Source of the DNA: Octopus vulgaris | Lineage: Eukaryota | DNA length: 64,000 bases | Assembly: GCA_951406725.2 (NCBI GenBank) | Contig: OX597825.1 | Span: 79,422,001-79,486,000 of the forward strand | Direction of reading: 5' to 3' | Shown here: positions 38,378 through 63,312 of the stretch, one piece after another | Layout of the letters: every line of letters starts with the position of its first letter | Numbering within the stretch: the stretch's first letter is position 1 | Program-made: the position numbers and the translations under genes | Notes under the pieces: generated by a model | Databases searched by the model: none | Told to the model about the DNA's origin: nothing | Seen by the model: only the letters and a program-made list of their open reading frames with translations

Positions 38378-38503
38378 GGGTATTGTTCAGTATTGAAGTA
38401 ACAGCCACATTTTTTGCTGTCAGAAACTACTGGAGAGGGTTTTTCTCTGCTGTGTGTGGGGCACTTATTTTTAGGTTATTGGCATTTTGGTTTAAAGACG
38501 AAG
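38378..38503 (+). CDS. CLCN2: ClC-2-like exon G: [42 protein letters not shown]; phase 1-1
   Basis: Polypyrimidine tract, ccAG / GTaagt; LFSIEV and VRNYWRGFF motifs; 126 nt. Confidence 0.98.
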
Positions 38504-39540
38504 GTAAGTTTCTCAACTAAACACTTCTTTATTTTTTCATCAGCTATTTCTTCCTGTAACTTTCCTTGGGGAAGGTTGGGGGGGGGGGGCACACACTATA
38601 AAGGGCCACAGAGAATTAAAGGGATTAATAATTATTTTCATAAGGGTGGTCTCTTGGGCAGGTTGCTATTTTTGTGCACAGGCATGGCCACGAGGTTAAG
38701 AAGCTTGTTTCTCCATCCGTGTGGTTTTGAGTTCAGTCTCAGTGTGTAGTATCTTGGGGTAAATATATTCTACTATAGCCCTGGGCCAACCAAAGTCTTG
38801 TGAATGGATTTGGCAGATGGAAACTGGAAGAAGCTTCTCATATGTAATATATATGTATGCGTTTGTGTGTGCCCTTGTTTTAATATCACCTGATGATTGT
38901 AAATGAGCATCACCATCCAAGAAGTGGTGTGGTTTCATTTCTTGCCTTCTTTGAAAGACATGTCTGGTCATAGGGAAATATTACCTTACTTGGAAACAAA
39001 TGAAGGTTGGTGACAGGAAGGGCATCCAGCTGTAGAAAAATATGCTTCAGCAGGTTCTGTCCAACTCATGCCAGCATGGAAAAGTGGATATTAAAATGAC
39101 GCTGAGGATGAACGTCAAAAAAGCCGACCTCTTCAAGAACGTTCACATACTCTTCTTTGAATCTTGAGTGGAAGCCATAATGGGGGTGAGTGTGGAGGAA
39201 GGGGCGCAGGCGAGGAAACAGACTTGTCAAGACTTGGTTGTGGACAGTAGCGGCAGACCTAATATATATATATATATGGCCGTGGTCCAAGAACAGGTTC
39301 ATGACAGGTCTTGTGATCATGCTGAGGTGGAGAGCTCTCACTATCTAATTCTCCATGGGAAGTGGTAGGCAGCTGGTCTATGACTTCCTTGTCTGTTATA
39401 ACCTGATTGGGCAAGTGTCCTTCTGTTATAGCTCTGAACTGGTGTGTGAATTTGGTAGGTGGAAACTTGATGAATCCCAATATTTTTTTTCTGTTATTTT
39501 CAATATTCTGTCATTTGTTTGAAATATTTTCTTGTTGCAG

Positions 39541-39625
39541 AAACCATAACAGCTTTATTTAAGACAACTTTAAGAACAGAAGTGCCATTTGATGCTCTTG
39601 AATTGATCATTTTTGCAGGAATTGG
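39541..39625 (+). CDS. CLCN2: ClC-2-like exon H: ETITALFKTTLRTEVPFDALELIIFAGIG; phase 1-2
   Basis: ttgcAG / GTaaat; ETITALFKT...PFD..EL motif; 85 nt. Confidence 0.96.
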
Positions 39626-40380
39626 GTAAATACGACTGTATTCTTATATCCATCCATCCATCTATCCAGCCAGCCATCCATGATGGTGTGTGTGTGTGTG
39701 TGTGTGTGTATTTCTCCCTCCCTTCTCTCTCTAGCACTACACTAATTAACGTAATCCCCCTATTTTGAAGAATGTTGTGTGATTTGAGAGAGATTTGGCT
39801 GCTATTTCTAGCAGGTTGTTATTATGGTGGGTTGTGATCTATAGTTCCACATTCACTCTGTCTGAGCAGATATATATGCTCACAGGAATTTCACCTGTGA
39901 CCATTTTTCAGGAACCAGACTGCTGTGAATTTTTGTATATCAAAGACTACACTGTCCAATGTTACCTTCTCTTTTTAAAGTGGTATGGTGTGAGCTGAAA
40001 GAGATTTGGCTGGTATTTCTAGTAAAACTGTCACACAAACACTCCCTTCTATGAATTTTGTATGTTGTCTGTAACCCTGTGTCATACAACTCCTTGAAAC
40101 TAGACAAGGTGGTCCCTCTTTATGTGTTCGGTTCATTCAAGAAATAAAAAAAAACCCAAAAAACCTGCTATCTTTTGTCCTTTATTTGTTTCAGTCATTG
40201 GACTGTGGCCATGCTGGGGCTCCACCTTGACAGGTTTAACCAAATAAATCGATCCCAGTACTTGATTTTTACTTTTTATAAGCTTAGTACTTACTCCATT
40301 AGTGTCTTTTGCTGAACCACTAAGTTATGTGGATGTAAACAAACCAACACCAGTTGTCAAGCAAGCAGTGAATTAGAGGA

Positions 40381-40431
<51 letters not shown>

Positions 40432-40450
40432 AGATACACACATACATATA

Positions 40451-40625
40451 TACAAGGGGGTGCTGAAAAGATCCTTGTTTTAAGGGTATCATGAAAGGCC
40501 TCAAGTTCTTTTACAGGGCTTAGAAAAACTGAAGGACCGCTGCAATAGGTGTATGAATCTGAGAGAGGAACATATTGGATAAAATCCTAATTAACTGATC
40601 CTCCTGTATTTGCTTTTACCCAAAA
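40451..40625 (+). mobile_element. Mariner relic (one TIR-like end plus transposase C-terminus)
   Basis: TACAAGGGGGTGCTGAAAAG end; frame LQGLEKLKDRCNRCMNLREEHIG* resembles the mariner C-terminus GIxKLxxRWxKCxxxxGxYxE. Confidence 0.6.
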
Positions 40626-42233
40626 AAGTTGCCCAACCTGATGATGACGATGACGATGGTGGCACTGGTTATTCTTTCATAAAAACTTAGTAACTTCGTT
40701 TTATACTTATCCATTTAATTATAATCCACTTTGTGCTGTAATTACTGGCTTTATTAAGTAGGTACATTACAGCATTTTTAAGTAGGAGCAGTAATCTATA
40801 AATCCAGCTCAGAGTATTGGTTTACTACTAAATATAGGAAGCTTGCGTTTCATGCAATTCGGTTATACGTACACACATACTTGTGTTATTTTATTATGCA
40901 CAAATATACAGCTACAGATATATACGCACGGAAATATGCGCAATCAGCTGTACATAGATGTGCACATACAGAAACATTTGTGTGTGTGTGTGTGTGGTGT
41001 GTGTGTGTGTGTGTGCATATACATGTATGTATGTGTGTGTGTATGTGCATATGTATATGTGTGTGTGTATGTATATATGTGTATGTGTATACGTGTATGT
41101 ACATATAGATATGTGTGTATTTATATATATATGTGTGTGTGTATGTATATGTATGTATATGTATGTATGTATATATATATGGATGTGTATGTGTGTATAT
41201 ATATATGTATATATTGTGTGTATGAGTATGTGTGTATATCTATATATATATGTGTGTGTGTGTATATATATGTGTATGTATATATATATATGTGTATGTA
41301 TATATATATATATATATGTGTATATATATATGTATGTGTGTGTATGTATATGTGTGTGTGTATGTATATGTGTATATGTTTGTGTGTATATATATATATA
41401 TTTGTACCCACACACACATACAGATTAATTTCAGTGGTATTGCTTTGCACTAGTGTCATTATTCATCATTATTCATTATCTTCTTATTTCAAAGCAATTA
41501 AAACTTGATAATTTACACAAAACAGCAGGGAAAAGAATTACAGAAGCCAATGAGAAACTTCATAAACATTGCTTGTGCCGTTAGAAATAGCAGCTAAATT
41601 TTTCTTAATCCTTTTCATACCAACCTTCTAGAAAGTGCCCCAAATTTTATGATACAAATTCCTCATTTTAAAGGGATATAAATGAAATCCACCCATTAGT
41701 ATTGAATATATTTATATATTTATTTATTTAACAAATTTTTCATTATTTTAAAAAGCTATTAACACAAAGGCAGTGAAGTTTTAATAGAAATATGGTCGTG
41801 AAAAGTTTTGAGGTCCTATCTTACCAGTCTCGAAAATTTACAGATGATTTATTAGATAATGAGGTTGTAGATGTACTGAGCCTAAAAATAGATGGACTGG
41901 TCACAGCTAGAGTGTCTTTGGTCTTATATCTATTGAATGGGTGTTGACTTGGGGGTCAAAAAACTATACCATCATTAACAATATAGGAATCAGGTTGGTC
42001 AGATTTGGATAAGTCTTACTTCTGTTTCTTTCCACATTTGATCTTTAGTTCTTACCTTGAACAAGATTTTCAACTCTTCATCATCATTGAACAGTGGTTG
42101 GAGTTTGATTTACAATTCCTTTATTGCACCATCTGAACAACAAATGACCCCTGGTGACTCTATTGACTGGCACTGTGGGCTCCTCATGCAATTTTCATTG
42201 GAGAACTTAAAAATACTTCTTACAAGACACATC

Positions 42234-42583
42234 TTGTAGTAAAGATTGTTTGCCAACATAACATGGCAGTCCTGGTTTAAGATGAATATTGCTGTAATTT
42301 AGCCCCAGGAGACATCGTCTCCAGCTGACTATATGACACGATCTGTGTCCTTACATTTTCAAACAATTATTCTGTGCTGATGAAGGGAAATAACCTGGAA
42401 ATTGCAGTACACAGATATTGTTTTGAGCTGAGTGGGGGTGCTAGATTCCCTTACTTGAAAATATAAGGACACAGATCGTGTTGTATAGCCAGCTGGAGAC
42501 AGTGTCTCCTGGGGCTAAATTACAGCAACATTCATCCTAAACCAGGACTGCTATGTTATGTTGGCAAACAATCTTTTCTACAA
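42234..42583. repeat. ~129-bp imperfect inverted repeat (42234-42362 / 42455-42583)
   Basis: TTGTAG.AAAGATTGTTTGCCAACATAAC...TTTTCAA against its reverse complement. Confidence 0.92.
42371..42415 (+). ncRNA. Candidate minimal type-I hammerhead in the loop of a ~129-bp inverted repeat
   Basis: TCTGTG-CTGATGA-AGG/CCT(G)-GAAA-TTGCAG-TA-CACAGA; perfect 6-bp stem I, GUA site, one extra nucleotide in stem II. Confidence 0.6.
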
Positions 42584-44320
42584 AGTACTGTTGCTGAATA
42601 TCTCTCGTTGTGAGACTTAAAAATAGTAATTTTCTAAGACACATCTTGTTGGTGATGGCCAATTATGGGAGAGAGCGAGAGTGAAAGAGAGAAAGGGAGG
42701 AAGAATTCAGTCCAGTTCTTAAATGATACTTTATTGTTTTATTTCCAAAATGATGGAAGGCAAAGTTGACCTTGGCAGATTTGAACTCTGAGTGTAGAGC
42801 TTCAATAAACACCACAAGACATTCTGTCTGATGCTGTGATGATTCCGTTAATTCACTGCTCTCTGTTTACAATACATTTTGGAAACAACTTGTCAAAATA
42901 AATCATATATACACACATATATATATGTGTATATATATATATATATGTGTGTGTATATGTATATATATATATATTATTGCATGTTGTTTATGTTTATACA
43001 TTGCTTGAATACAATGACATGGATCTAGTGACCATCACATGTTCTTGTAAATTATTGTGCAGTCAAGCTAATGAAGGAGCCTCTCCATAGATCCTTAATT
43101 CACTAGAAATAGCAGACAAATTTTCCTTAATTGTTACTGTTTTTTTTTTTTTTAAATGAAAGGACTGCAAATAATCTCAGATATAATCTATTAGATTGTT
43201 ATGGCCATGGTTGGCAAGTCTTAGGTCATAGGCCAGATTGACCTGGGGCTCTCTCTCTTTACTCTTTTACTTGTTTCAGTCATTTGACTGCGGCCATGCT
43301 GGAGCACCGCCTTTAGTCGAGCAAATCGACCCCGGGACTTATTCTTTGTAAGCCCAGTACTTATTCTATCGGTCTCTTTTGCCGAACCGCTAAGTGACGG
43401 GGACGTAAACACACCAGCATCGGTTGTCAAGCAATGCTAGGGGGACAAACACAGACACACAAACACACATACATATGTGAACCCAGAACCATGTGGTTGG
43501 TTAGCAAGTTATTTACCACACAGCCACTCCTACCAAAAAAAAAAAAAAAAGATATATTGGGTTGGATAGTCCTAGATACATTATGTTTGAATGAAAGATG
43601 GGATGATCACAGTTGGAAAGTCTTTGGTCATAAGTTTTCTTGGTTAGGGTTGTGACCCTGGGCTAAACAGTAGCGGCTTCTCCATCGCAAAGTTTGATCC
43701 AACAAGGGACCTTTTACATCAGTGCTCCTCAAAGTGGGGAGTGGAAAATTTTATGTGGGTATTGAGGACAAAGGGAAGCAGTGGGAGGTGAGGGACTTTT
43801 TAGTTTTTATCTCCTAATTTAAATATTAATTTAAAAAAAAAATGAAAATTAAATGTAATCCTATGATACAGTGTAGCAATTAAGGTAACAATAGATTATA
43901 ATAGCCATCTATGTATTATACATAATGCATGTACACAGTTGACTGGCCAGTTGGTATGGTATTTGTCCTTAGATAACAAATCTCATGGACTTACAATGTA
44001 GAAAACATAATAAGTATCAGAGAAAAAGATGAAAACTCATCATAGCAGTGGCCAACAAGAACACCAGATGCATTTTAGCCTTTTGAGGTCTTTTCAATGG
44101 CAAGTACTTGCAGCCAGCCATGTGTTTAGATGAGAATTCAGGTAAGTTAGAAACAAAAGGCTTAACGATTACATTAATCAATGTGGTTTGACTTCTTAAA
44201 CACTGTAGGACGTGATTTGAAGTAGATTTTGCTTATTATTTCTAGCAGGTTGAATAATCTTGCTTTGATAATCTCTGTTTTGTCCTGATGTATAATCCCT
44301 TTTTTTTTTTTATATTTCAG

Positions 44321-44422
44321 CGTAGCATGTGGCTTAGGTGGGTCTCTCTTCATTTTACTTCATAGAAAAATAATTCTCTTCACCAGAAGACACAAAAGGA
44401 TGTCTGCTTTTCTACAGAAAAA
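44321..44422 (+). CDS. CLCN2: ClC-2-like exon I: VACGLGGSLFILLHRKIILFTRRHKRMSAFLQK; phase 2-2
   Basis: tttcAG / GTaagc; helix J similarity (G.GG.LF..L.RKI); 102 nt. Confidence 0.94.
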
Positions 44423-45074
44423 GTAAGCAGAATCTCTTTTTTTCTAAGAAACTTTTCCTTGTGTGTTCAACAGTCTGACATGAAATTTATTGTTTGTTTT
44501 TAAAATATGTTTTATCTTAGATCAAGGGAAGTAATTCTTGCTTCTGAAACAATAAAATGCTTTTCAATGTTTTCGGATTAAACATTGATTAGACAAGATT
44601 GATTAGTATATATGAATACGTGATGTCATCATCATTTAAATGTCAACTTTCCCATGGTTACATGGATTGGACAGAATTTGTTGAGGCAGATTTTCTGTGA
44701 TGGGATGTTCCTCCTGTTACCAACCCCTACCCGTCTCCAAGTAGGGTAATATTTTGGTATAGCTTGATCCAGAGGGACGGAAGGCAAATTTGACCTCAAA
44801 GGGTTTTGAACTCAGACGGTAAAGAGACAACAACAATAATAGTAATAATAATAATCCTTACTACTAAAGGCACAAGGCCTGAAATTTGTGGGGAAGGGAC
44901 TAGTCGATTACATTGACCCCCAGTGATTCACTGGTACTTCATTTATTGAGCCTGAAGGGATGAAAGGCAAAGTTGACCCTGGCAGAATTTGAACTCAGAA
45001 CGTAAGGATGGATGAAATGCCACTGAGCATTTTGCCCCCAGCATGCTGGCGATCCTGCCAGTTTACTACCTTAA

Positions 45075-45125
<51 letters not shown>

Positions 45126-45129
45126 TGAT

Positions 45130-45160
<31 letters not shown>

Positions 45161-45169
45161 TGATATAAT

Positions 45170-45200
<31 letters not shown>

Positions 45201-45202
45201 TG

Positions 45203-45252
<50 letters not shown>

Positions 45253-45275
45253 TTTGATCTGTTTTATCATTTCAG

Positions 45276-45360
45276 TCGATTTATTTATCCTGGAATAATA
45301 GCTATTTTAATATCTACATTAACATTCCCACCTGGTCTTGGACAATATTTTGCTGGACAG
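45276..45360 (+). CDS. CLCN2: ClC-2-like exon J: NRFIYPGIIAILISTLTFPPGLGQYFAGQ; phase 2-0
   Basis: tttcAG / GTatgt; LISTLTFPPG.GQ..AGQ motif; 85 nt. Confidence 0.97.
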
Positions 45361-46437
45361 GTATGTATATATATGTATATATTTTTGTATATCTTTAATA
45401 TAGTATATGATAAACCCTTTTCTGACAGAAGACACCCAAGTTACTTTTCCTTCTCCTCCTCTTTTCACCCCTGTTGTGTCCAGCCCCTTTGTATCTGCAC
45501 TAAGCACCATCCCAGTCCTTCCTTTTCAGAATGACTTCCCTCTGAAACCTCCCTCTCTGCTCATGTCATTCATGAATGTGTTGACTTGAAGTAGTTTAAA
45601 TAAAAAAATTAATAGCATCATTTTTACCTGTTTTCGATGACTGGTGATGGCCAATGGTCACTGCTCCTTGTTCCACACCTGGCAAATGAGAAAAAAAAAT
45701 GAATGTCTTTTTATTTGTTTCTGTAATCAGAATTAAAAAAAAATCTTCTCGACTGGTTTCATATCTAATTTGATTCTCTTCAAATATCATTTGACCCACC
45801 CATTTCATTTAGTGATTGTACATAGCTGTTAATTATACAAGCATGCCTCAGTGTATATTGTTTCGAGTTGCATCTTTTTTGGCTTAGCCATTTATTTTTT
45901 TTTTTAAGAAATTAATGAGAAAAATAGCCCTCAACTACAGTTGATTTATCTAACTTTACATTGATCTCAGTGAACATATTTAAAAGCATAAAGATTCAAA
46001 AAGCATAAAACCCAATCCTGAAGTAGAAAATAAAAAAAATAATACATGTGAAAATATGTACAAACCATTTATTCAAACAGATAAGAGGTAATAAATTTCT
46101 CAACCCTCCAGCATTTAAACTGGCCATATCCAACCAGAATATTCTACCTGTTTTATGTAGAAATTAGCTAAATTCTAGCCTCTTATACCTACCCTACAAT
46201 GTTATTCTAAAAGTAAACAATCACATCATCAAAATCTCAGAGCAACAAGGTAATGTGAGACTAATTCAAAATAATGTGAATAGATGAGGATTTTATATGA
46301 TAGAGAAATCTGAATGTTAAAGAGTCAATTGGTCTTCCATTTTTTATAATTTTTTAAGTGAACCTGCATATCTCAGAACTAATTACTGATGTAAGTTGAG
46401 GGATACCTGCATTTCTCTCCTTGGGCAGATCATATAT

Positions 46438-46484
46438 TTTATCTCTGATGAAAATCAAATGAGATGTGAAACCGGTCAGGTAGA
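46438..46484 (+). ncRNA. Candidate minimal type-I hammerhead ribozyme (Penelope-type)
   Basis: TTTATCT-CTGATGA-[stem II AAATC/GATGT]-GAAA-CCGG-TC-AGGTAGA; intact core, palindromic stem III, GUC site, 7-bp stem I with two G:U pairs. Confidence 0.65.
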
Positions 46485-47559
46485 TCCTTTTTTGTTTTTG
46501 TTTTTGTCAACAGAGAAAAAGAAAATGACATTTGTTTACAGTTGTCCCAGCCCTGTGATGGATCTGCTGTGAAAGACGGTTTAGTTTGAGTCATACCAAA
46601 TATAGGCCAAAAAATAAAAGCTATTTAGTGCTTAATTAATTCATTTGTAAGAATCTCTGTGTGTGTGTGTGTGTACATCTATATTCATCGTGGCCGTAGC
46701 CAGCGCCGCCCTGACTGGCTTCCTTGCTGGTGGCACGTAAAAAGCACCATTCGACCGTGGCCGTTGCCAGCTTAGTCTGGTCTCCGTGCCGGTGGCACAT
46801 AAAAAGCACCATCCAATCGTGGCCATTTGCCAGCCTCGTCTGGCACCTGTGCCGGTGGCACGTAAAAAGCACCCACTACACTCACGCAGTGGTTGGTGTT
46901 AGGAAGGGCATCCAGCTGTAAAAACACTGCCAGATCAGTCTGGGCCTGGTGCAGCCTTCTGGCTTCCCAGACCCCAGTTGAACCATCCAACCCATGCTAG
47001 CATGGAGAACGGACGTTAAACGATGATGATGATGATGATGATGATGATTTTATGCCTGTTTTTCCATTTCCTCATGTGTTGGGTGAGTCTTCTCCAGCAG
47101 AACACCTTGTCACTTGTCATCTCCTTGATAAGATTCAGCCCCTCAAGATTAGCCTCCTGTGTCTTCCTTGGTCTTTCTCTTTTTCTGGTTCCTTTCTCTA
47201 CACTTCCACACACACACACACACATGTGACTGTGAGTGTTTCTGTACATATATATATTTTCAACCAATATATCCCTCTTTATTTGTTCTCTACTTATTAT
47301 TTCTTTACCCCTTCTCTTCCTAGGGTCTGCCTTTGACGTTGAATCTACTAAAGTTTTTCTTAAATACTTAATAGTGTTCTGTTTATCATTTATGCAGTCA
47401 TTGAAATTGTTATAATGTCTTGTTGTTGAGATGGGTTCCCTTTCTTTCCTGATGAGAAGATAGCATTTTACACCGTGTATTCCTTTGGAATAATACCAAT
47501 GTTGTCTTCGAAACATATGTCGAAAATTTGAATAGCATCTGCGTTCAACTTCACTTATA

Positions 47560-47691
47560 CAGGGTGTCCCCAAAAAAATGTATACACATAGTGGTTCGGC
47601 AAAAGAGAACGATAGAATAAGTACTAGGCTTACAAAGAATAACAAATTTACAATTATTTAAGGTGTGTATACATTTTTTTGGGACACCCTG
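47560..47691. mobile_element. Tc1/mariner-type MITE containing a SINE fragment
   Basis: TA|CAGGGTGTCCCCAAAAAAATGTATACAC ... GTGTATACATTTTTTTGGGACACCCTG|TA. Confidence 0.85.
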
Positions 47692-50300
47692 TATATATAT
47701 AATATGTAAATGTGTTTATGAATATCATATACGATATAATTGATAAACATGTAGTTTATTTATTAGCTGTGGGTTTGGGTCCCATGAGCATCCTTTGACA
47801 TGCACTGAGCTCCAGTGTCTGCTATATATATAGCTGTGTGGGACAAAACACACAAACACATTTAGTTTACATTTTTTATGTATATCATCATCATCACCAT
47901 CCTGTGTTTGAGTGTGTCTGTACATGTATGTATATCTATATATTTAACCTTATATATACGTCACTTTAACTATGTATAAACATACACACACACCCATAAT
48001 GGGTGCATGTATGTATACTGCCTTAGGATGTTTACTGTTGGCTGGTTTGTTTATATGTATTTCACCAGATATAGATGTATGTGTGTGTGTGTGTGTATAT
48101 ATATATTATATATCAGCAAATATATATAAATACAAGTTCTAAATAGGTTGTTAGCATTAGATTTCAATAATTCAGATTTCAGAATATTTCCATATTCCTA
48201 ATGAGCAATATTGTATTTCATTTTCATGCACAAATGTCTTCTGCTTTAAGAATTCATTGTGGTTCTTTGGTTATTCCTGTCAGTTGACGTAGTTATCACC
48301 TATCAATTACAATATTTCACTCTATTTATTTTGTATAGAATAACAGCAAAAAAACAAAAAAGAAAAAAGGTTTCACCTGATGAGTTTTGATAACGGATTC
48401 TTGGTAAAGTGGAATGGGGGTGGCATCAAAAGCTGTTAATGCCAAGAATTTGGTACTGGCTGATCCCAAAGACCATCCCCTGAGAAATACGGGAGTTCTA
48501 ATTGCAGTAGCATTCATGTTCTGGTGATATTGTTTGCTTGTTTCAATCATTGGACTGCAGCCATGCTGGAATACCACCTTGAAGGGTCCTCATCCATCAA
48601 ATTGATCCCTAGTACTCATTAAGTCTGCTACCTGTTCTGTCATTCTCTTTTGCTGAACTGCCAAACCATGGGGATGTAAACAAACCAACACTGGCAGTGG
48701 GTGTGTGGGGCAGACAGATAGACACATGTACATCTGTGTGTGTGTGTGTGTATGTACACACACATACACACAATGAGCTTCTCCACAGTTTTCTATACAC
48801 TTTTCACTTTTAGGAAAAAGACATCTTGCTTTACTTTAGACATTAATCTGATGGTTTATCTGGCAAATGAGCTGGCACTCATGAGCATTCCAAGCAAAAT
48901 GCTAAGCAACATTCTATTAGCCTTTATGATTTGAGTTCAAATACCACCAAGGTCAGCTTTGCCATTTATCCTTTCATGGTTGAGCACTTTGGATTGATGT
49001 AATCAATTTAACCCCTCCCCCGAAATTGCTGGCCTTGTGCCAAAATCTGAAATCAATATAATGGTTTATAATAAAAATCTCATACGGCTTTGCAAAGTTC
49101 TTGGTTTGAATTCTAAATTCCAATAAGTTTATTCTTGGCAGCAAAATGGTAGACTTGTTGGAATGTTGGATGGAATTACTTAAGCCCTTCACTGCCAATG
49201 GATCATAGGCCATTGATGACTTTTTCTCACTGTTCTCTACTCTGAGCTGTTGGGGCCACTCCTGGGGACACCCTCATCCATGTGTCTTGGGCACTGATTC
49301 TCAACCATGTTTTACCTATGGACACCCTTGATCCCTATTTAAAGTTAAAAAAAGAATCCCATAATTAAATATTATTAGGACCTTTATATAAAAAAAAAAT
49401 TGAAGTATTTTGTGTAATGTAGAAGTACAACTGATTTATTGTACAGAATTTTTAACAACTAAATCTTATCTGGACACCCCCTCCCAGAGTCATGTGAACC
49501 CTGGTTGAGAACCACTGATCTAGAATTTCCCTGGGAGAAGGGCTTCTGCTCTCAGCTCTTGTTGGTTTTGAATTGACATCTATTCTTCTGAAACTTTGCT
49601 TTTATCTAGGTAAGAGTCTTGGCCCTATGTAAATCCATTTTTACCTCTGGGATGAGGTGATCCAACGTAGTCTGACCTCAATACTTTGACCTGTCCAGCA
49701 TTGTAGTCCCTGCCTGGAGCTTATGCTCCACTGGCACAGCTCTCAAGTGCATTATACACACAGTACCAGGCTAGTTTCCAACAATAAACTATTATTTCTA
49801 AACTAAATGTAATTCCACAGTTATCTGATATTTTACTGATATATTTATGTGAAACTTTTTTTTGCCATTCTCAAGATGCTTATTACTAAAGGGATTGTTC
49901 TTGTTTCCAATCTTCCCTATTTTTGTTATCAATGTTTCCAGGTCCTTGTATTTGGATACGTATGTCTCTTTCCCCCTAATTCAGAAATAAGGCTTTATTT
50001 AAGTTTGAATTCAGTCTGGAGTCTGGACATGTCCAGGAAAAAGACGCCTAAAGCTGATTAAATACCAAACTGATCAGAATATAGAGTAGATATAAAGGAA
50101 AGGAATATTTCATCTCCACTATAAAGGTTTCTTAAAAAAACACAGACACACAAGAAAAAAGAGGGAATAGAGCAATCAGGTCTGGAATTCAGTCTTGTCA
50201 AATCCATCTCTATCTGGTTAGAACTCTTCTAAAAATTTTTAAAAAATGAAAGAAAATGTAATAAAAAGCATATATTTATAATGAGTTGATTGTTTTGCAG

Positions 50301-50453
50301 TTGACTGCTCGTCGAGCCATTAACGAACTATTCAGTAACATTACATGGACCACAGGACAAGCTGATGATTTAGAAGAAGAGGCCATCCTCAGGCACTGGA
50401 ATCCTCCGGCTACCAATATCTATGTCACACTATTACTCTATGTCATTATGACC
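50301..50453 (+). CDS. CLCN2: ClC-2-like exon K: LTARRAINELFSNITWTTGQADDLEEEAILRHWNPPATNIYVTLLLYVIMT; phase 0-0
   Basis: ttgcAG / GTaagt; LF.N.TW with N-glycosylation sequon NIT, and WNPP..N motif; 153 nt. Confidence 0.95.
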
Positions 50454-51099
50454 GTAAGTATTTTATATCCAGTTTTATTTTCCATCTCAGTAATTTATAA
50501 TGGGGACAAAACTGAAAAATTATTTCTATAAATGTGTAGATTTTACTTTGGAATTTTTCCAAACCCATATGTTATAGCCATCTATATATCATACTTAACA
50601 TGTATACACTGTGGACAGGCGAGATACTGCAGTTTTTGTCAGAGCTCCCCAAATCACAAGATTATCCTGGAGTTGTGATTATCCTTGTGGGTGCAAAGAG
50701 GAAGGGAAGCTGATTGTGCAGAGTAAAAAAACCCAGTTGCTACATATGTGGAAGTAAAAGCCACTCTTCTCCTCCTAGGAACTCCTGGTTCTAAGAACAG
50801 CCATTGAAGAACTTAATGGATCTACTGAACAACTGGAGGAAACCGGGGAACAATGTGTTGGTTGTGGTAGAAGCAAGACCCTATACACAGCTTGGAATGT
50901 TTCTGGCTTAGTCTCATATCGTGGGGGCTATTACATGAGTAACAGTGCTGGGTGGGTCACTCTTATTTTGTTTTTGCGTTCATTTATTTATAATTACATG
51001 CATTTATATTTATTTATTCTATGTATGTTATCTGAAATTTGATATTTGAAAATATATCTTGTATAATTTCATATAATACACCCACCCACCACACACATG

Positions 51100-52053
<954 letters not shown>

Positions 52054-52409
52054 CAACTGGAGGAAACCGGGGAACAATGTGTTGGTTGTGATAGAAGCAA
52101 GAGCCTATACACAGCTTGGAATGTTTCTGGTTTAGTCTCATATCGTGGGGGCTATTACATGAGTAACAGTGCTGGGTGGGTCACTCTTATTTTGTTTTTG
52201 TGTTCATTTATTTATAATTACATGCATTTATATTTATTTATTCTATGTATGTTATCTGAAATTTGATATTTTAAAATATATCTTGTATAATTTCATATAA
52301 TACACCCACCCACCACACACGTGTATATATATATATATATATATATACATACACACACACACATATATATGTATATTTATATATATATATATACTCATAT
52401 ATACATGCA

Positions 52410-52483
<74 letters not shown>

Positions 52484-53658
52484 AAATACTTGAGTACATA
52501 TTTCGTAGCACCTTTATAACTTGTTGTTATGAATATATGGTCCCTTGTGACAAATACAAGACATTTAACTGGTTGGCAATGAAGATCATAGGTTTTTCTG
52601 CTGCTGCCTTCTGGAAATAATTAAGTGGATTGAAAGAATCGTTAGAGAATCTAATTTCCTTGCAGTATTCAGTTACAGCACTTTACATTTACACTTCAAA
52701 TGATGCCAAGGTTAACTTTGCCTTCATTCTTTCAGGATCCGTATAGTAAAGTACCAGCAAAATACTGGGCTCAATCTAATTGACCAACCCCTCCCAACAA
52801 ATTTCTGACCTTGTGTTCTTGAGCAAGACACTTTATTTCACGTTGCTCCAGTTCACTCAGCTGTGGAAATGAGTTGCAACATTATTGGTGACAAGTTGTA
52901 TTGGCCCCTTTTCCTTTCCCTTGGATAACATCAGTGGCATGGAGACGGGAGGCTGATATGCATGGGCAACTGCTGCTCTCCCATAAACATCATTACCTGA
53001 ATGTGTGCCTTGGAGGGAAGCTTTCTAAGTGCAATCCCATGGTCATTCATGACTGAAGGGGTCTTTACCTGTTACCGTTTTTACTGATGTTAGAAATTAT
53101 TCTTGTTATTATTGTTGCTAAGGCGGCAAGCTGGCAAAATTGTTAGCACGCTGGGCGAAATGCTTAGCAGTAGTTCATCCATCTTCACATTCTTAGTTCA
53201 AATTCTGATGAGGTTGACTTCGCTTTTCATCCCTTTAGGGGGTCGATAGATTGAGTACCAGTGAAACACAGGGGTCGAGGCAATCGACTATCCCCCTCCC
53301 CTAAAATTTCAGGCCTTGTGCCTATAATAGAAATTATTATTGTTGTTGCTACTACTGCTGATGCTGCTGCTGTTGTTGTTGTTGTTGCTGTTAAGCAACA
53401 AGATGGGTAAGGGTGATTAGGTGATGGTCTAGTGGTGAGGAGCGGGAGACCCCCAGACCTTGGAAAAAAACAAAAAAATTTGGTTGTCTTGTTGTAGTCG
53501 AGGGCTCTTCGTTGACACCTGACACCACTGGGAGGTGGCCCTCGAAGTCGCTGGAAATGGAGATCTCCAGGTTCAAATTCTTGAACAGCTGCTGCTGCTG
53601 CTATCATATTGAAGAACATTGCCTTATATATCTTTTTTTTTTTTAACTTTTTTTGTAG

Positions 53659-53728
53659 TTTTGGATGGGTGCCTTGTCAAACACTTTACCAATTCCTGCG
53701 GGTGTCTTTGTTCCAGTTTTCTGCTGTG
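53659..53728 (+). CDS. CLCN2: ClC-2-like exon L, copy 1: FWMGALSNTLPIPAGVFVPVFCC(G); phase 0-1
   Basis: tttgtAG / GTttgt; GxFxP motif; 70 nt; identical to copy 2. Confidence 0.85.
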
Positions 53729-54368
53729 GTTTGTAGATTATATATTTTGCTTTTTTTCCCCCCACAAGACCCATGCTTTCTCTCCTCTTGTAAAAGTTTT
53801 GTCTTTGCCCTATCTAATACACATTCGGCAGAGTGGACTCGCATTGGACTCAAAAACGACTCTTGGTAAACAACTTGTTGTCACTTCCACATATCCTCAT
53901 AATCTCATTATTCTTCACATTCATCCCTTCCATGCTGGCTCCGGGTGGACCAAACTTACTGAGGTAGTGTCCTTTGGATTAATGTCCTTTCTGCCACCAA
54001 TTTTTGTCTGTTAAAACAAGTAAGATATTATATTCCATTGGTCTTCAACAAAACAGCTGTTGACCTACAGGAAGCAATGTTTATATACGACATTAACAGA
54101 GTACCATTTTTGCACAAGTGATTTCATTGGGAAGACAGGGAAATAAGCTCTCATGTGCACACACATGTATATATGCCAGCATGACAGGCTTCCATACAGT
54201 TTTTGTCTACCAATTTCACTCAGAAAGCTTTAATTAGTTCAAGGTTATAATTGATGTTCAAAGTGTCATAGAGTTTGATGGAATTGACACCATATGGAGA
54301 ATTTGTAACCAGAGACATGCTTCTAACTTGGCTTAATAAATACACACATTTATGTGTGTGTGGGTATT

Positions 54369-54416
<48 letters not shown>

Positions 54417-54996
54417 GTGTTAGAAATTATTCTTGTTATTACTGTTGCTAAGGTGGTAAGCTGGCAAAATTGTTAGCATACCGGGCGAAATGCTTAGCGG
54501 TATTTCATCCATCTTCACATTCTTAGTTCAAATTCTGATGAGGCTGGCCTCACCTTTCATCCCTTTAGGGGGGTCGATAAATTAAGTACCAGTGAAACAC
54601 TGGGGTTGATGCAATCGACTATCTCCCTCCCCTAAAATTTCAGGCTTTGTGCCTATAATAGAAATTATTATTGTTGTTGCTACTACTGCTGATGCTGCTG
54701 CTGTTGTTGTTGTTGTTGCTGTTAAGCAACAAGATGGGTAAGGGTGATTAGGTGATGGTCTAGGGGTGAGGAGCGGGAGACCCCCAGACCTTGGAAAAAA
54801 ACAAAAAAATTTGGTTGTCTTGTTGTAGTCGAGGGCTCTTCGTTGACACCTGACACCACTGGGAGGTGGCCCTCGAAGTCGCTGGAAATGGAGATCTCCA
54901 GGTTCAAATTCTTGAACAGCTGCTGCTGCTGCTATCATATTGAAGAACATTGCCTGATATATCTTTTTTTTTTTTTTTTTTTTACTTTTTTTGTAG

Positions 54997-55066
54997 TTTT
55001 GGATGGGTGCCTTGTCAAACACTTTACCAATTCCTGCGGGTGTCTTTGTTCCAGTTTTCTGCTGTG
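54997..55066 (+). CDS. CLCN2: ClC-2-like exon L, copy 2 (tandem duplicate, identical 70 nt)
   Basis: Same acceptor, donor and exon sequence as 53659-53728. Only one copy can be used in frame. Confidence 0.85.
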
Positions 55067-55706
55067 GTTTGTAGATTATATATTTTGCCTTTTTTCCCCC
55101 CACAAGACCCATGCTTTCTCTCCTCTTGTAAAAGTTTTGTCTTTGCCCTATCTAACACACATTCGGCAGAGTGGACTCACATTGGACTCAAAAACGACTC
55201 TTGCTAAACAACTTGTTGTCACTTCCACATATCCTCATAATCTCATTATTTTTCACATTCATCACTTCCATGCTGGCTCCGGGTGGACCAAACTTACTGA
55301 GGTAGTGTCCTTTGGATTAATGTCCTTTCTGCCACCAATTTTTGTCTGTTAAAACAAGTAAGATATTATATTCCATTGGTCTTCAACAAAACAGCTGTTG
55401 ACCTACAGGAAGCAATGTTTATATACGACATTAACAGAGTACCATTTTTGCACAAGTGATTTCATTGGGAAGACAGGGAAATAAGCTCTCATGTGCACAC
55501 ACATGTATATATGCCAGCATGACAGGCTTCCATACAGTTTTTGTCTACCAATTTCACTCAGAAAGCTTTAATTAGTTCAAGGTTATAATTGATGTTCAAA
55601 GTGTCATAGAGTTTGATGGAATTGACACCATATGGAGAATTTGTAACCAGAGACATGCTTCTAACTTGGCTTAATAAATACACACATTTATGTGTGTGTG
55701 GGTATT

Positions 55707-55752
<46 letters not shown>

Positions 55753-55899
55753 GTGAAATAGAAAGATGAATAATCTTGTTGCAGATTAATCAAAAGTTTA
55801 ACCGATACCTTTGTAGCAAAAATCACAGCAGAAGAAAGCACGGTTGGAGGTACAACCATATGGTGTTGCAACCGTGCATTGGTGCGGATAATTGAATTT

Positions 55900-56002
55900 T
55901 AATATTATTAGTGAATTGAAGAAATGGAGTTGAACGAAGATTGAACAGGATTTCTGTTCAATCTTCGTTCAACTCCATTTCTTCAATTCACTAATAATAT
56001 TA
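55900..56002. repeat. Perfect 49-bp inverted repeat with a 5-nt loop
   Basis: 55900-55948 is the exact reverse complement of 55954-56002. Confidence 0.95.
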
Positions 56003-56124
56003 TATATATATATATATGTGTGTATGTATGTATTTGTGTGTGTGGTGCAATCGTTTAGTGAGTTTGACTGTTGGCTAAAAGGTTGGTGGTTGAAGTCCAC
56101 CCAGGGATGTACAGCATATTTTTT

Positions 56125-56470
56125 GTGAAGGTGCATGGCTCAGTGGTTAGAGCTCGGGCTTGCAATCATGAGGTAGTGAGTTCGATTCCTGGATCGAGCT
56201 GTGTGTTGTGTTCTTGAGCAAGACCCTTTATTTCACGTTGCTCCAGTTCAGCTCAGCTGTAGAAATGAGTTGCAACGTCACTGGCGTCAAGTTATATCGT
56301 CCTTTGTCTTTCTCTTGGATAACATCAGTGGCATGGAGAGGGGAGACTGGTATGTATGGGTGACCTGCTGGTCTTCCATAAACAACCTTACCTGGACTTG
56401 TGCCTCGGAGGGTAACTTCCTAGGTGCAATCCCATAATCTCATGGTCATTCATAACTAAAGGGGGTCCTT
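56125..56470 (+). mobile_element. tRNA-derived SINE family C with a CORE-like domain (partial copies ~27480-27700, ~52812-53070, ~57435-57620)
   Basis: A box TGGCTCAGTGG, B box GAGTTCGATTCC, then TTGAGCAAGAC...CAGCTGTAGAAATG. Confidence 0.75.
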
Positions 56471-56825
56471 TTTTTATATACACTCATGCAACCACTACAC
56501 ATCTGTTCTTCCCAGTCTTTTGTACTCGCTCTGTCCTCTAATCACCTTCTTGTACTTTAACAGCACATTCTGACTCCTCATTACCGCCATCTTCATCTCT
56601 CTTTCCAGCTCCCCCCTGATTGCTCCTACCCACTTTTATATATAAGGTAGCTGTGTCTCTCCTCTACAGCATAAAACCATCTCCTTTTCTACTATACTCT
56701 CATTCAGTCAAGGGAGATCCTTAGCTAGGTGAGTTACATGGTGACCTCACAAGTGTTGGCCATATGGAAAAGGCACTCGGTACACACTGTGAAGTGGTTG
56801 GCATTAAGAAGGTCATCCAGCTGTA

Positions 56826-57128
56826 TGTTTGTTCCTTCTTGAGCCATGCCTGGCTCATAAGGGCCGGTTTTCCGGTTTCCTTGGCATATAGGTTCCCCAC
56901 CTGGATGGGATGCCGGTCCGTTGCATGTGAGCTGCAAGATGCAGGAGGAAAGAGTGAGAGAAAGTTGTGGTGAAAGTGTCAGCAGAAGTTCGTCATTACC
57001 TTCTGCCTGAGCCGTGTGGAGCTTAGGTGTTTTTGCTCATAAACACACACATCACCTGGTCTGAGATTCGAACCTGTGATCCCTCAACCACGAGTCCGCT
57101 GCTCTAACCACTAGGCCATGTGCCTCCA
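56826..57128 (-). mobile_element. tRNA-derived SINE family D with 12-bp TSD, nested in another repeat
   Basis: TSD CATCCAGCTGTA at 56814-56825 and 57129-57140; minus-strand A box TGGCCTAGTGG and B box GGTTCGAATC. Confidence 0.85.
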
Positions 57129-57936
57129 CATCCAGCTGTATAAACCAGGCCAAAGTAGACATTGGAGCATGGTCCAGTTATCTGATTCTTTCGGTTGTTA
57201 AACTGTCAGTGTGGAAGGTAGATGTTAAACGATAATGACACTTGTGTGTTTGTATGATACTAATGAATAGTGAAATGAAAAGAAGAAAAAAAATGTTTGG
57301 TGCGTGGAACAAAAGTACATTGTAGTGTTACAACTCTTTCTATGATGATACACTTAAACATTTCATAGCATAAATACCAACATGAGTTCCTGACAAAGTG
57401 GTTGGTATAATTGGTGACTAAAGCATCTTGAGTGGATGTGCATGATTTAGTGGTTAAAGTGTTGTACTTATGATTGTAAGATTGTGCTTTCAATTCCTGA
57501 ACCAGGCAACACATTTGTGTTCTTGAGCAAAACACTTCTTTCCACGTGGCTCCAGTCCACTCAGCTGGCACAATGGAGTAACTGTGCGATGGATGGACTG
57601 ACGTTCTGTTCAGCAAGGGAAAAAAATATACTTCTCAGAAGCCAGAGAACTGTCCTAATGAGCCTTAGGTTCAGGAAGAACCTTTGATCCTTTTCTTTTC
57701 TTTTTTGGAAACCCCTTTGGGGTGCAGTGCCTGAGTTTGGCAGCTGTCCAGTGACTGACACCAGTAAATGCAGTGCAAGAATAACTAAATACATAATAAA
57801 GCACTGGAAATATTTTAATAGCATCAACATTTCAAAACTTAGCACACACATTTCTAGCAAGGAAACCACCACCACCACCACCACCACCACTTTGTCATAT
57901 ATGACATATGGCATTCATTATAGATATGATATGACA

Positions 57937-57971
<35 letters not shown>

Positions 57972-58967
57972 TGCTAAGTAAGGCAGACATATCTGGTGCT
58001 TCTGATAACTTTATCCTTTCATCTCATGGACATTTTTCCCTTTAATTTTTTCCCAAAAACAATGACACGCCTCATTTGCATATACTCTTTCTTCTCTTTG
58101 CAATCTCCGTGCCCTTTCCACCCCCATCGACACTATACCATTATTAAGTAGTGGAAACCTTTGTTATCATGATTATCACTAGGATGGTAAGATGGCAGAA
58201 TTGCCGGTGCGTCAGACAAAATACTAAGTGGTATTTCTTCTGGCTCTTTATTTTTCTGAGTTCAAATCCCACCAAGGTCAGCTTTTCCTTTTGTTATTTC
58301 GGGGCTGATAAAATAAGTACCAGTTGAGTACTGGGGGTTGATGTAATTGACTAACTCCTTCCCCACCAAATTTCAGGCCTTGTGCCTATAATAGGAAGAA
58401 TTATCATTATCATTGCTTGTAGTGACTGGGTCTTGTGCCAGTGGCACGTAAAAAGCACCATTCAAGCGTGGTCGATGCCAGTACTACCTGACTGGCCCTT
58501 GTGCCGGTAGCACAAAAAAGCACCCACTACACTCTGAGTGGTTGGCATTAGGAAGGGCATCCAGCTGTAGGAACCTTGCCTGATCAGATTGGAGTCTGGT
58601 GCAGCCATCTGGTTCGCCTGTCCTCTGTCAAACTGTCCAGCCCATGCCAGCATGGAAAGCGGACGTTAAACAACGATGATGAAGATGATGACGATGATTG
58701 AGGACTCATGGCCTAGTGGTTAGGGTGTTGCGTTCACTATCACAAGATCTTGGTTTCAATTCCTAGATCGGGTGGTGCATTGGGGTTCTTGAGTAAAGTC
58801 CTTCATCTCATGTTGTTTGATGATCACTTTGACACTTGACACACTGTGCACCTGATCAGGCACCATTGATTTGATGAAGGGAGGGAGCTCATTTATGGGC
58901 ACAGCACATTCGATCACCATAAACAAATAATCTGTGCAGGTTGTTTGGCAAAAGCTGAACATTCGTA

Positions 58968-59196
58968 TACTCTTTACTCTTTTACTCTTTTCAGTCATTT
59001 GACCGCGGCCATGCTGGAGCACTGCCTTTAATCGAGCAACTCGACCCCGGGACTTATTCTTTTGTAAGCCCAGTACTTATTCTATCGGTCTCTTTTGCCG
59101 AACCGCTAAGTAACGGGGACATAACCACACCAGCATCGGTTGTCAAGCAATGCTAGGGGAACAAATACAGACACACAAACACACACACATACATAC

Positions 59197-59258
<62 letters not shown>

Positions 59259-59420
59259 GACAGGCTTCTTTCAGTTTCCGTCTACCAAATCCACTCACAA
59301 GGCTTTGGTTGGCCTGAGGCTATAGTAGAAGACACTTGCCCAAGGTGCCACGCAGTGGGACTGAACCTGGAACCATGTGGTTGGTAAACAAGCTACTTAC
59401 CACACAGCCACTCCTGCGCC
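58968..59420 (-). mobile_element. SINE family A, full length, antisense
   Basis: Near-identical reverse complement of 62717-63117. Confidence 0.9.
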
Positions 59421-59896
59421 TATGTTGTCTTTGATGGAAGAAGCCATCATCATCATCATCATTATTATTATTATTATTATCATCATTGTCATGGCAGCAA
59501 GCTGGATAGAATGGTTTCTTTTATTCTTTTACTTGCTTCAGTCATTTGACTGTGGCCATGCTGGAGCACCGCCTTTCATTGTAGGCCTAGTACTTATTCT
59601 ATCGGTCACTTTTGCTGCAGCATGGCCACAGTCAAATGACTGAAACAAGTAAAAGGATAAAAGAATAATTTTGAAATATATATATATATCAAAAATTGTT
59701 GTATAATTTCTAATTTTATGCACCCTAAATAATTCACTGGGTACAATTCAGTGTAGTTTTTGTGCAATCAGATATTTAAGAATTGTATTGATCCCCTGCA
59801 AAGCTGTAGAAATTCATGTCCCGACATTTAACCTGAAATGAATGACTGTCCTTCTGGATTGTTCTAAAATGTGTTTATGATTTGTCTTCTGTGAAG

Positions 59897-60007
59897 GGGC
59901 CGCATTTGGAAGGCTGGTCGGCGAGAGTATGTCTACATGGTTTCCAGAAGGAATTCGTAGCGGAGATGTTGTTCGGAAAATAGTTCCTGGAGGATATGCT
60001 GTGGTTG
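59897..60007 (+). CDS. CLCN2: ClC-2-like exon M: GAAFGRLVGESMSTWFPEGIRSGDVVRKIVPGGYAVVG; phase 1-1
   Basis: tgaAG acceptor / GTaagt; near-identical to ClC-2 GAAFGRLVGESM..WFP.GI...IVPGGYAVVG; 111 nt. Confidence 0.97.
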
Positions 60008-60034
60008 GTAAGTATATACGCACAAGTGCATGTG

Positions 60035-60099
<65 letters not shown>

Positions 60100-60140
60100 A
60101 GACACACACACAGACACACACACAGACAGACACACAGACA

Positions 60141-60191
<51 letters not shown>

Positions 60192-60588
60192 TCACACACA
60201 CTTTCAAAACTACTACCATCACTATCATCATTGGGGTCAAAGTAATTCACTTATCACCTCTGCCAGAATTGCTGGCCTTGTGCCAAAATTCGAAATCAAT
60301 ATTTTGATAATGTTTATTTTGATACTGTTAGTATTTAGTTAATGTCTACAATACTTTGATAATGTTCTTATTATCATCATCTGTTTTGTATGCTACCATT
60401 CGTTGGACAATTCAACAGGACCCAAGGAGCCAGAGAACTGTGTCAAGTTCCAGTGTCTGTTTTGACATAGTTTTTGTGGCTGGATGCCTTTCCTTAGATA
60501 ATGCTCTACTATTCAGATAATGTTGTTTTATTTTGATAATGTCTTATATAACACCATGTGTTTTAAAATCTTCTAATAACCTCTTCAG

Positions 60589-60686
60589 GTGCGGCAGCCC
60601 TCTCTGGAAGCGTAACGCGTACAATATCCACATCTGTGATAGTATTTGAACTCACTGGTCAGATTAGCCATGTGTTGCCTGCTGTG
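60589..60686 (+). CDS. CLCN2: ClC-2-like exon N: [33 protein letters not shown]; phase 1-0
   Basis: cttcAG / GTaagt; FELTGQ motif; 98 nt. Confidence 0.97.
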
Positions 60687-60706
60687 GTAAGTTGTTATTC
60701 TTATTA

Positions 60707-61067
60707 ATTACTTCCACCCTTAGCGAAGGTGGAGGTGTTGTTTTCAGTTGTATTTGTTTGTTTGGTTGATTGCTTTGGACAAGATATCTCAAGAACCGCT
60801 GGATGGATTCGGATGAAACTTTCAGGGATGTTTGGCCTCAAACTGATTAGATTTTGGGACTGATTCAGTACCGGACAAGGATTCTGGATCATTTTTCTGT
60901 TTTTATTTTTTACTTAATTTTTGAGATTGGTCGGGTTCATTTTTAGTTCACTCGTTTGTGAGAGCAGTTGAGTTTATTTCAGATATTCTCATTTTAAAAA
61001 TCATCTCCGGCGAATTGTTGAGAAGACATTGGTGTTGCTTGGTGGAGATTTGAGCTCTCTGAGTGCT
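60707..61067 (+). mobile_element. Helentron-associated (DINE/HINE-like) non-autonomous element
   Basis: 5' ACTTCCACC..GGTGGAGGT short inverted repeat, GTTT microsatellite, 3' TTGGTGGAG followed by a short CTCTCTGAG stem-loop. Confidence 0.6.
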
Positions 61068-62716
61068 CCTGTGATTATAGTTACTTCACAGAATCGGTAA
61101 AATGCTGGAGAAAATTGATTTGAACACGTTTAGTTATAACTTGTGTTGAAACACTACCAAGGTTGACTTAGCCTTTAATCTCTTCTGGATTTAAGAAATA
61201 AGTACCAGTCAGGTGCTGGTGTTGATGTATGTGAATTTAGTGTCTTAGAAATAATTTTGTTACTGTTTCAAATCCCTCCAGATTCACCATTACCATTTAT
61301 CTCCCCTGGGTTCTCATCAATGATTGTGGTTGCATTAGTTGGCTACAATAAATTACTTTGTCTGCTTGTGTATTGGTGTGTGTTTCATCATCATTTTAAC
61401 ATCCTCTTCCAATGTTTACACGTGTTTGTGTGTATGCATATATCACTCTGTAAAGTGGTTGGTTTTAGGAATGGCATCTGCCCATAGAAACCATCCCAAG
61501 GTAGATCTTCTGGCTTGTCAGTTTCTTTTGAACCATCCAATCTATACCAGTGTGGAAAGCAGACATTAAACAGCAATGATGTTGATGATGATGATGTGTA
61601 TGTGTGAAACTATTATAAAAAATTCGCTTGTTTTTTTTTTATCCTGGGTGAGATCTGTGATCCAAGGCATTCCACCCATGACCATTGCATTGCATTTTAT
61701 ATTGGGTAATTTTGATTTTTGTCCTTTCAGGGTTGATATAAATAAACTACCAGTTACATACGTAGGTCTGTGGTGTGCAAAATTTAAGGTCTTGTGCCTG
61801 TGCTAGAAACCTTATTAGGCTTGGCTGTGCAGTTAAGGAGTTTGCTTCCTAGCCACATGATTTCAAGTTCAGTCCCACTGCACAGCAGCTTCAGCAAGTC
61901 TCTTTTACTAAATCCCCAGGTTGACCAGAGCCTTGTGAGTAGAAGCTGGAAGGAACCTGTCCAATGTGTGTAAATGAGAGTCACCGTCCTGCAAGTGGTG
62001 TTGTTTGTTTCCAATCTTTCCTAAAAAGCGATGCCCAGTACTGGAAAAGTATTATTTTGTCTAGGGTTGGTGGCAGGAAGGGCATCCAGTTGTGAAAAAT
62101 CTACCCCAATGACCTCTGTCCGATCCATGCAGGCATGAGGCATGGAAAAGTGTATGTTAAAATGGTGATGATGTTTGTGAAAGAGTGGCAGAAATGGTAG
62201 AGTGACATGCTGCCACGTGGACATAAGGACGTTCGTTCATTTGTTACTTTTTCCTTGTCTTGACATTGCCTGATAGTTGTAAGTGAGTGTCACTGTCGTA
62301 CAAGCAGTGTCGTTCATTTCCAGTCTTCTGTGAAAACATCTTTGGCCTTGGGGAAATATTACCTATTTCTTTACTACCCACAAGGGGCTAAACACAGAGG
62401 GGACAAACGAGGACAGACAAATGGATTAAGTCGATTACATCGACCCCAGTGCGTAACTGGTACTTAATTTATCAACCCTGAAAGGATGAATGGCAAAGTC
62501 GACCTTGGCAGAATTTGAACTCAGAATGTAGCAGCAGACGAAATACAGCTACGCATTTCGCCTGGCATGCTAACATTTCTACCAACTCGCTGCCTTGGGG
62601 AAATATTACCTTGCTTAGAAACAGGTGAATGTTGGCAACAGGAAAGACATCCAGCTGTGAAAAATCTGCATCTGTAAACTTTGTTTGACCCATGCAAGTA
62701 TGGAAAAGTGGCCATA

Positions 62717-63117
62717 GGCGCAGGAGTGGCTGTGTGGTAAGTAGCTTGCTTACCAACCACAAGGTTCTGGGTTCAGTCCCACTGCGTGGCACCTTGGGCA
62801 AGTGTCTTTTACTATAGCCTTGGGCCGACCAAAGCCTTGTGAGTGGATTTCGTAGACGGAAACTGAAAAGAAGCCCTTTGTATATATGTATATATATATG
62901 CGTGTGTGTGTGTTTGTCCCCCTAGCATTGCTTGACAACCGATGCTGGTGTGTTTATGTTTCCGTTACTTAGCAGTTCGGCAAAAGAGACCAATAGAATA
63001 AGTACTGGGCTTACAAAACGAATAAGTCCTGGGGTCGAGTTGCTCAATTAAAGGCGGTGCTCCAGCATGGCCGCAGTCAAATGACTGAAACAAGTAAAAG
63101 AGTAAAAGAGTAAAGAG
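62717..63117 (+). mobile_element. tRNA-derived SINE family A, full length. Other copies: ~2323-2766(-), ~6985-7385(+), ~11460-11865(-), ~15030-15485(+), ~17445-17836(-), ~20869-21283(+), ~43255-43530(-)
   Basis: A box TGGCTGTGTGG, B-box-like GGTTCAGTCCC, internal (TA)/(TG) microsatellite, tail GGCGGTGCTCCAGCATGGCCGCAGTCAAATGACTGAAAC(AAGAGTAA)n. Confidence 0.9.
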
Positions 63118-63196
63118 TATTAAAATGATGATGATGATGATGATAGAATAAAGTACACTCGTCCTGGCTGACATGTTACCATTTTTTACCTTGCAG

Positions 63197-63312
63197 GTTG
63201 CTGTGTTGATTGCCAATGCAGTTGCACATTTTTTGCAGCCTTCCTTCTATGACAGCATCATTCGGTTAAAAAGGCTGCCCTATCTGCCTGACCTCATCAA
63301 CACTAAACAAGA
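63197..63312 (+). CDS. CLCN2: ClC-2-like exon O: [38 protein letters not shown]; phase 0-2; gene continues past the window
   Basis: ttgcAG / GTaagt; QPS.YDSII..K.LPYLP with central Tyr; 116 nt. Confidence 0.97.

Follow-up and report, generated by a model that had tools for sequence, protein, structure and literature searches.

A 1.33-kb segment of an Octopus ClC-2-like chloride channel gene is present twice, in tandem and head-to-tail, in the DNA analysed here (a single stretch of 64,000 nt from Octopus vulgaris, referred to below as the 64-kb window). The two units abut (unit 1 is 1330 nt and unit 2 is 1336 nt in length), and each contains an identical copy of the same pore exon, which we call exon L. 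From the sequence, we tentatively favor the view that this is a real, recent duplication allele, which would lose most of the function of the gene through a predicted frameshift and NMD. The features of the duplicated region are as follows.

53090..54419, plus strand: duplication unit 1, consisting of a 30-nt flank, the SINE, intron, exon L copy 1, intron, (TA)n and 6 nt
53120..53340, plus strand: SINE-like dispersed repeat, version a, at the head of unit 1
53659..53728, plus strand: exon L copy 1, 70 nt, phase 0-1, with the GxFxP motif; the longest pyrimidine run of its acceptor is 14 nt
54373..54413, no strand assigned: (TA)20.5 tract, ending 6 nt before the junction
54418..54421, no strand assigned: unit junction 54419/54420, flush, with a 2-nt microhomology (TG)
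54420..55755, plus strand: duplication unit 2, with the layout of unit 1 and holding exon L copy 2
54450..54672, plus strand: SINE-like dispersed repeat, version b, heading unit 2 and sharing 91.5% identity with version a
54997..55066, plus strand: exon L copy 2, identical to copy 1; its acceptor has a pyrimidine run of 22 nt and a branch-point-like motif at -40
55711..55749, no strand assigned: terminal (TA)19.5 tract of unit 2

A sequence-only reading of this DNA had described two head-to-tail units of about 1.33 kb that carry identical, splice-intact copies of exon L, and both descriptions were borne out. The units (53090-54419 and 54420-55755) are 97.0% identical over 1343 alignment columns (blastn), and the exon copies agree at 70/70 nt, are both in phase 0-1 and flanked by AG..GT, and are separated by 1268 nt. 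No other repeat pair in the 64-kb window approaches the units in length and identity, which are far beyond chance (blastn). There are no N letters anywhere in the window, and the units join without a gap. The 2-nt microhomology at the junction has a chance expectation of 18%. Four features described below go beyond that reading: the uneven divergence of the units, the difference between the two acceptors, the frameshift on skipping both copies, and a further local duplication 1-2 kb upstream.

The remaining parts of the gene that are needed here are listed below.

14185..63312, plus strand: ClC-2-like gene, 14 modelled coding exons, 498 aa; its 3' end is beyond the window
near 1672-1803: a further exon of the ClC-2-like gene
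50301..50453, plus strand: upstream exon K, 153 nt
59897..60007, plus strand: downstream exon M, which carries the premature stops at 59958-59960 (reached with both copies of exon L) and 59981-59983 (reached with neither)

By its sequence, the gene with the duplicated exon is an Octopus ClC-2-like chloride channel. With one exon L the 14-exon model has an uninterrupted frame of 498 residues, and the protein is the same whichever copy is used. This one-copy model agrees at 498/498 residues with ClC-2 proteins of O. vulgaris (P0048, CAI9731383.1) and O. sinensis (P0043, XP_036363845.1), and has one difference from that of O. bimaculoides and 12 from that of Argonauta. The O. vulgaris protein P0048 contains a Voltage_CLC domain (PF00654; E 1.4e-71), and the signature motifs GSGIPE, GKEGP and GxFxP are all present in the gene model. 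A C-terminal CBS pair would be encoded beyond the window; P0048 has one CBS match, below the cut-off (17.2 vs 24 bits). The GxFxP motif marks the start of helix N and binds chloride via its backbone amides. Exon L aligns to residues 443-464 of human ClC-2, and its best structure matches are ClC-2 chains. The aligned segment spans F459, M460 and F463, which in human ClC-2 line the pocket for AK-42, and the external chloride is held by backbone nitrogens (both PMC10942593).

The reading frame depends on the number of exon L copies that are included. With both copies, translation stops at 59958-59960, after residue 495 of 967; the sequence-only reading had named the same TAG, and our recomputation gave the same peptide and the same stop. 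Skipping of both copies also shifts the frame, to a stop at 59981-59983 after residue 456 (of a protein of ∼967). Premature stops usually trigger NMD when they lie more than 50-55 nt before a later exon junction. The double-inclusion stop is located 47 nt before the M/N junction and 145 nt before the N/O junction, and because of the latter distance it fits this rule. If the two copies were chosen independently with probability p, the in-frame output would be 2p(1-p), which cannot exceed half and drops to about a tenth when p=0.95 (simple arithmetic). Acceptor 2 appears to be stronger than acceptor 1, and the donor common to both copies (GTTTGT, at 53729-53734 and 55067-55072) appears weak: it lacks a purine at +3, which is present in 13/13 of the other modelled donors. 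Single inclusion may therefore be common and the allele only mildly affected.

In both units, the shifted frame of exon L extends into the intron without a stop, over 115 codons (53667-54014 and 55005-55352). A protein search with 45 residues of the copy 2 shifted frame and adjoining intron returned five candidates, none with E<=10; this is a weak test, as the product of joining the two copies would match only 21 of these residues. The open shifted frame is probably due to chance.

The exon L peptide was followed in 63 mollusc ClC-2 proteins, 37 from a search with exon K and 26 from clusters (the largest of which was covered for 15 of its 32 members). It is present once in 60 of the 63, absent from three shorter ones, and present twice in none (0/63). 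All 19 octopod proteins have the same version of the peptide, and there is no second version among them. The O. vulgaris and O. sinensis proteins thus contain the peptide once, whereas the window contains the exon twice. An identical genomic copy is invisible in proteins, and so this set shows just that one-copy transcripts are the annotated norm. The additional GxFxP-like match seen in oyster proteins is a different, unrelated motif further downstream.

The two units differ at 32 of 1330 nt (2.4%), with 29 substitutions (21 transitions, 8 CpG-type) and three indels located in runs or the microsatellite. Given the spectrum of transitions and CpG-type changes, sequencing error was rejected as the source of these differences. 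Their distribution along the unit is uneven: there is one in the first 30 nt, 20 in the 221-nt SINE, four in the next 318 nt, none in exon L, six in the next 198 nt and none in the last 446 nt, plus one TA unit. Divergence decreases along the unit, from 9.05% in the SINE through 1.3-3.0% around the exon to 0% at the end. This clustering was reached in none of 100,000 random placements and remains significant when CpG sites are left out (p=0.0006), while the clean 446-nt tail at the (TA)n end is weakly significant (p=0.037). The sequence outside of the SINE shows 10 differences in 1032 nt (∼1%); the heterozygosity reported for O. vulgaris is 1.22% (10.1101/2023.05.16.540928), a value that may stem from another assembly than this one.

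The repeat at the head of each unit, which we take to be a SINE, has 11 other copies of at least 130 nt in the 64-kb window (63-78% identity). When compared with these 11, versions a and b share 22 departures from the family majority in 192 informative columns, seven of which are absent from the other copies; each version also has eight private states, and three are ambiguous. The 30-nt 5' flank is common to the two versions as well (29/30). Because of this shared flank and the 22 shared and 8/8 private states, versions a and b derive from one insertion, and have been apart for long and diverged about equally. What lies in tandem is, on this comparison, a pair of versions of a single locus that separated long ago. 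In its simple form, an origin by independent insertion of SINEs or by recombination between them was rejected; the 30-nt flank is common to both versions and absent before the five other copies that were inspected, and unit 2 has no SINE after it. The shared and private states are interspersed, leaving no long tract, and on this ground conversion of either version by a different member of the SINE family was likewise set aside. A young SINE subfamily might still account for versions a and b.

The window has two local duplications of at least 100 nt, and both end at (TA)n, of which there are 19 pure runs of (TA)15 or longer. The second one (50830-51089 vs 52054-52313; 98% identity, with six substitutions in 270 nt) is in the same intron as the units, 1-2 kb upstream, and a TA-rich tract follows each of its copies (716 nt for copy 1 and 160 nt for copy 2). 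Tracts of (AT)n are hard to assemble. They are also cleaved by nucleases and are fragile and break-prone in yeast and human cells (PMC12708500). The link between duplication and (TA)n therefore cuts both ways.

The exon L pair has the outward form of mutually exclusive exons (MXEs), being adjacent, homologous, equal in length and phase, and flanked by intact splice sites. The peptides of the two copies do not differ, and neither steric nor U2/U12 exclusion is indicated for copies that are separated by 1268 nt and both have GT-AG introns. Steric exclusion requires under about 50 nt (PMC5740500), which upholds the view in the sequence-only reading that this intron is too long for it. In duplex scans for docking/selector pairing, the best duplexes with the downstream intron had energies of -49.7 and -41.5 kcal/mol, and these were matched by 12/19 and 14/19 intronic control stretches, respectively. 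Two unit-to-downstream duplexes beat three Markov shuffles, and those with the upstream flank fell within the shuffles. The segment at 53410-53452, which is present in each unit, can pair with the head of a minus-strand repeat (57070-57130) at -46.6 kcal/mol for unit 1 and -41.8 kcal/mol for unit 2, which is not above background. The docking-site/selector model (Ivanov and Pervouchine 2018, PMC6071210) requires that the duplication include flanking intron, as it does in this case, but pairing between a duplicated stem arm and a single-copy flank did not rise above background in our scans. The remaining ways to use a single copy would be competition between the copies and NMD.

The favored reading, a real and recent allele, can be pictured as follows. 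The (TA)n tract would break, or a replication fork would stall there, and in the course of repair the template would be switched to a site 1.33 kb upstream that probably lay on the homologous chromosome; two different alleles would thereby be placed in tandem. Both exon L copies are predicted to be spliced into the transcript, which would shift the frame and lead to a premature stop. With the copies uncoupled, only transcripts with exactly one exon L would be in frame, and those with two or zero, in which translation would end around residue 495 or 456, respectively, of ∼967, would be NMD substrates. We favor this reading because the join is flush, with neither a gap nor an N; because the differences look biological (21/29 are transitions, and eight are CpG-type); and because the divergence outside of the SINE (10/1032) is near the reported 1.22%. 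It is also favored by the retention of AG and GT on both copies, with neither exon decayed, by the lack of any exclusion device in our scans together with the one-copy peptide in 60/63 proteins, and by the fact that both local duplications end at break-prone (TA)n. The arrangement resembles out-of-frame single-exon duplication alleles of human DMD, in which a constitutive exon and its flanks are doubled and double inclusion leads to a premature stop; in the present case this outcome is predicted from sequence. By this analogy the duplication, if real, would work like such an allele and belong to an ordinary class. If it is also private, it would be an ordinary structural variant, yet it would offer a clean natural test of how the spliceosome deals with a freshly doubled, frameshifting exon, the presumed first step in the origin of ion-channel MXEs.

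Several points count against a real allele. The duplication is seen here in one assembled sequence, and the 2-nt microhomology at its junction has the 18% chance expectation noted above. If the donor without a purine at +3 makes single inclusion common, the effect on the allele would be only mild. An unusually divergent SINE allele is needed, and a 9% patch between two alleles is unlikely, with a probability from a simple coalescent calculation of 0.2% if diversity is 1.22%, 1.7% if it is 2% and 6% if it is 3%; that the divergent patch stops near the place where the SINE does is not explained by the model. A divergent stretch beside an identical one is also the setting in which Ko et al. (PMC9516828) describe false duplications.

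A different account is that an assembler or gap-filler set two haplotypes of one locus end to end, and that the animal has one exon L per chromosome. We regard this as somewhat unlikely, although a good deal is consistent with it. The overall divergence of 2.4% is about twice the reported O. vulgaris heterozygosity, with the 9% patch beside the 446-nt identical run; the join is 6 nt from a microsatellite, with a second two-copy stretch only 1-2 kb away; and the octopod proteins compared carry the exon L peptide once. In Ko et al. (2022, PMC9516828), false duplicates have 1.5-1.8-fold higher heterozygosity, especially at boundaries between heterozygous and homozygous sequence, and unsupported gap-filling is a route to gap-free false duplicates. 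The units share with their heterotype false duplications the adjacent near-identical copies and the raised divergence beside an identical run, and differ in having no assembly gap, though a filled gap is possible; false duplicates are most often gap-separated, and one true allele-specific tandem duplication within a single contig is described in the same work. The raised divergence at a putative heterozygous/homozygous boundary is therefore compatible with false duplication, but is not diagnostic of it. Apart from the missing gap, two points speak against this account: the coding exons and splice sites over 49 kb are error-free relative to two reference proteins, which suggests a well-supported consensus, and long reads are generally longer than 1.33 kb. 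If the duplication is nevertheless false, it is a warning that 1-kb exon duplications next to (TA)n in octopus assemblies, even where there is no gap, should be checked against reads before they are annotated. The falling divergence itself (from 9.05% to 1.3-3.0% to 0%) is explained best by another history, in which the units are as old as the split of the SINE versions and repeated repair from the (TA)n end, by gene conversion, overwrote the rest, including the exon; splicing would use mostly one copy, and NMD would clear the remainder. Clustering beyond that of any of the 100,000 random placements, the roughly equal evolution of versions a and b from one insertion, and the seemingly stronger acceptor 2 with a weak shared donor all agree with such a history. 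We nonetheless consider it unlikely, since unequal crossing-over should soon remove a constitutive pore exon's frameshifting copy if exclusion does not work, and our scans revealed no device for exclusion. Both exon copies are free of decay, the difference-free run next to (TA)n is of weak significance, and deep alleles would yield the same SINE pattern. Its stricter form, an old and fixed pair frozen before divergence, whose copies are held identical by gene conversion from (TA)n while splicing picks one and NMD clears the rest, is less likely still. If the pair were old and fixed, it would be a case of concerted evolution that has kept two exons from diverging, and the intronic differences between the units could reveal which copy is used.

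A regulated switch, in which the ClC-2 level is tuned by the inclusion of one vs two copies (unproductive splicing) or in which the pair is a working mutually exclusive cluster, strikes us as very improbable. The frame and stop geometry would permit NMD, and of human MXE clusters 377 (60%) have lengths not divisible by three, with joining reads for 83 of them (PMC5740500); but identical copies create no new isoform, and neither a docking site above background nor a second peptide version in octopods was found. Of the four explanations offered by the sequence-only reading, the loss-of-function allele and the false duplication both fit the present results, whereas the mutually exclusive pair and the NMD switch find no positive support in the sequence, given the same peptide and no exclusion mechanism besides NMD clean-up. 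That reading had also invoked tandem exon duplication as a common source of such exons in ion channels. The enrichment in ion channels stands (PMC9741552), but the events are mostly ancient and give different peptides. The exon L pair resembles the tandem-duplicated and mutually exclusive ion-channel exons covered there and in PMC5740500 in that homologous exons are adjacent, the gene encodes a channel and joint inclusion shifts the frame. Unlike the mostly ancient MXEs in those accounts, with their two peptides and junction support, the exon L copies are identical and showed no exclusion device in our scans. Among the papers listed in a literature search, with most subscription journals outside its coverage, none described this locus or a CLC pore exon that is duplicated or mutually exclusive.

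The surroundings of the units contain additional repeat structures. Between the copies of the second duplication is an insert of ∼237 nt (51817-52053), which begins with a (GATT)n run. Its minus strand has 49 open codons, without a Pfam match, in a frame that presumably resembles the C-terminus of a LINE ORF2. The whole structure (50830-52483) might represent a truncated retroelement whose target-site duplication is very long. A near-perfect palindrome of 103 nt (55900-56002; 97% arm identity) lies 145 nt after unit 2 and is MITE-like or hairpin-forming. Further downstream, 230 nt before exon M, there is an imperfect inverted repeat (59516-59665; 77% over about 150 nt) that consists of two opposed repeat fragments.
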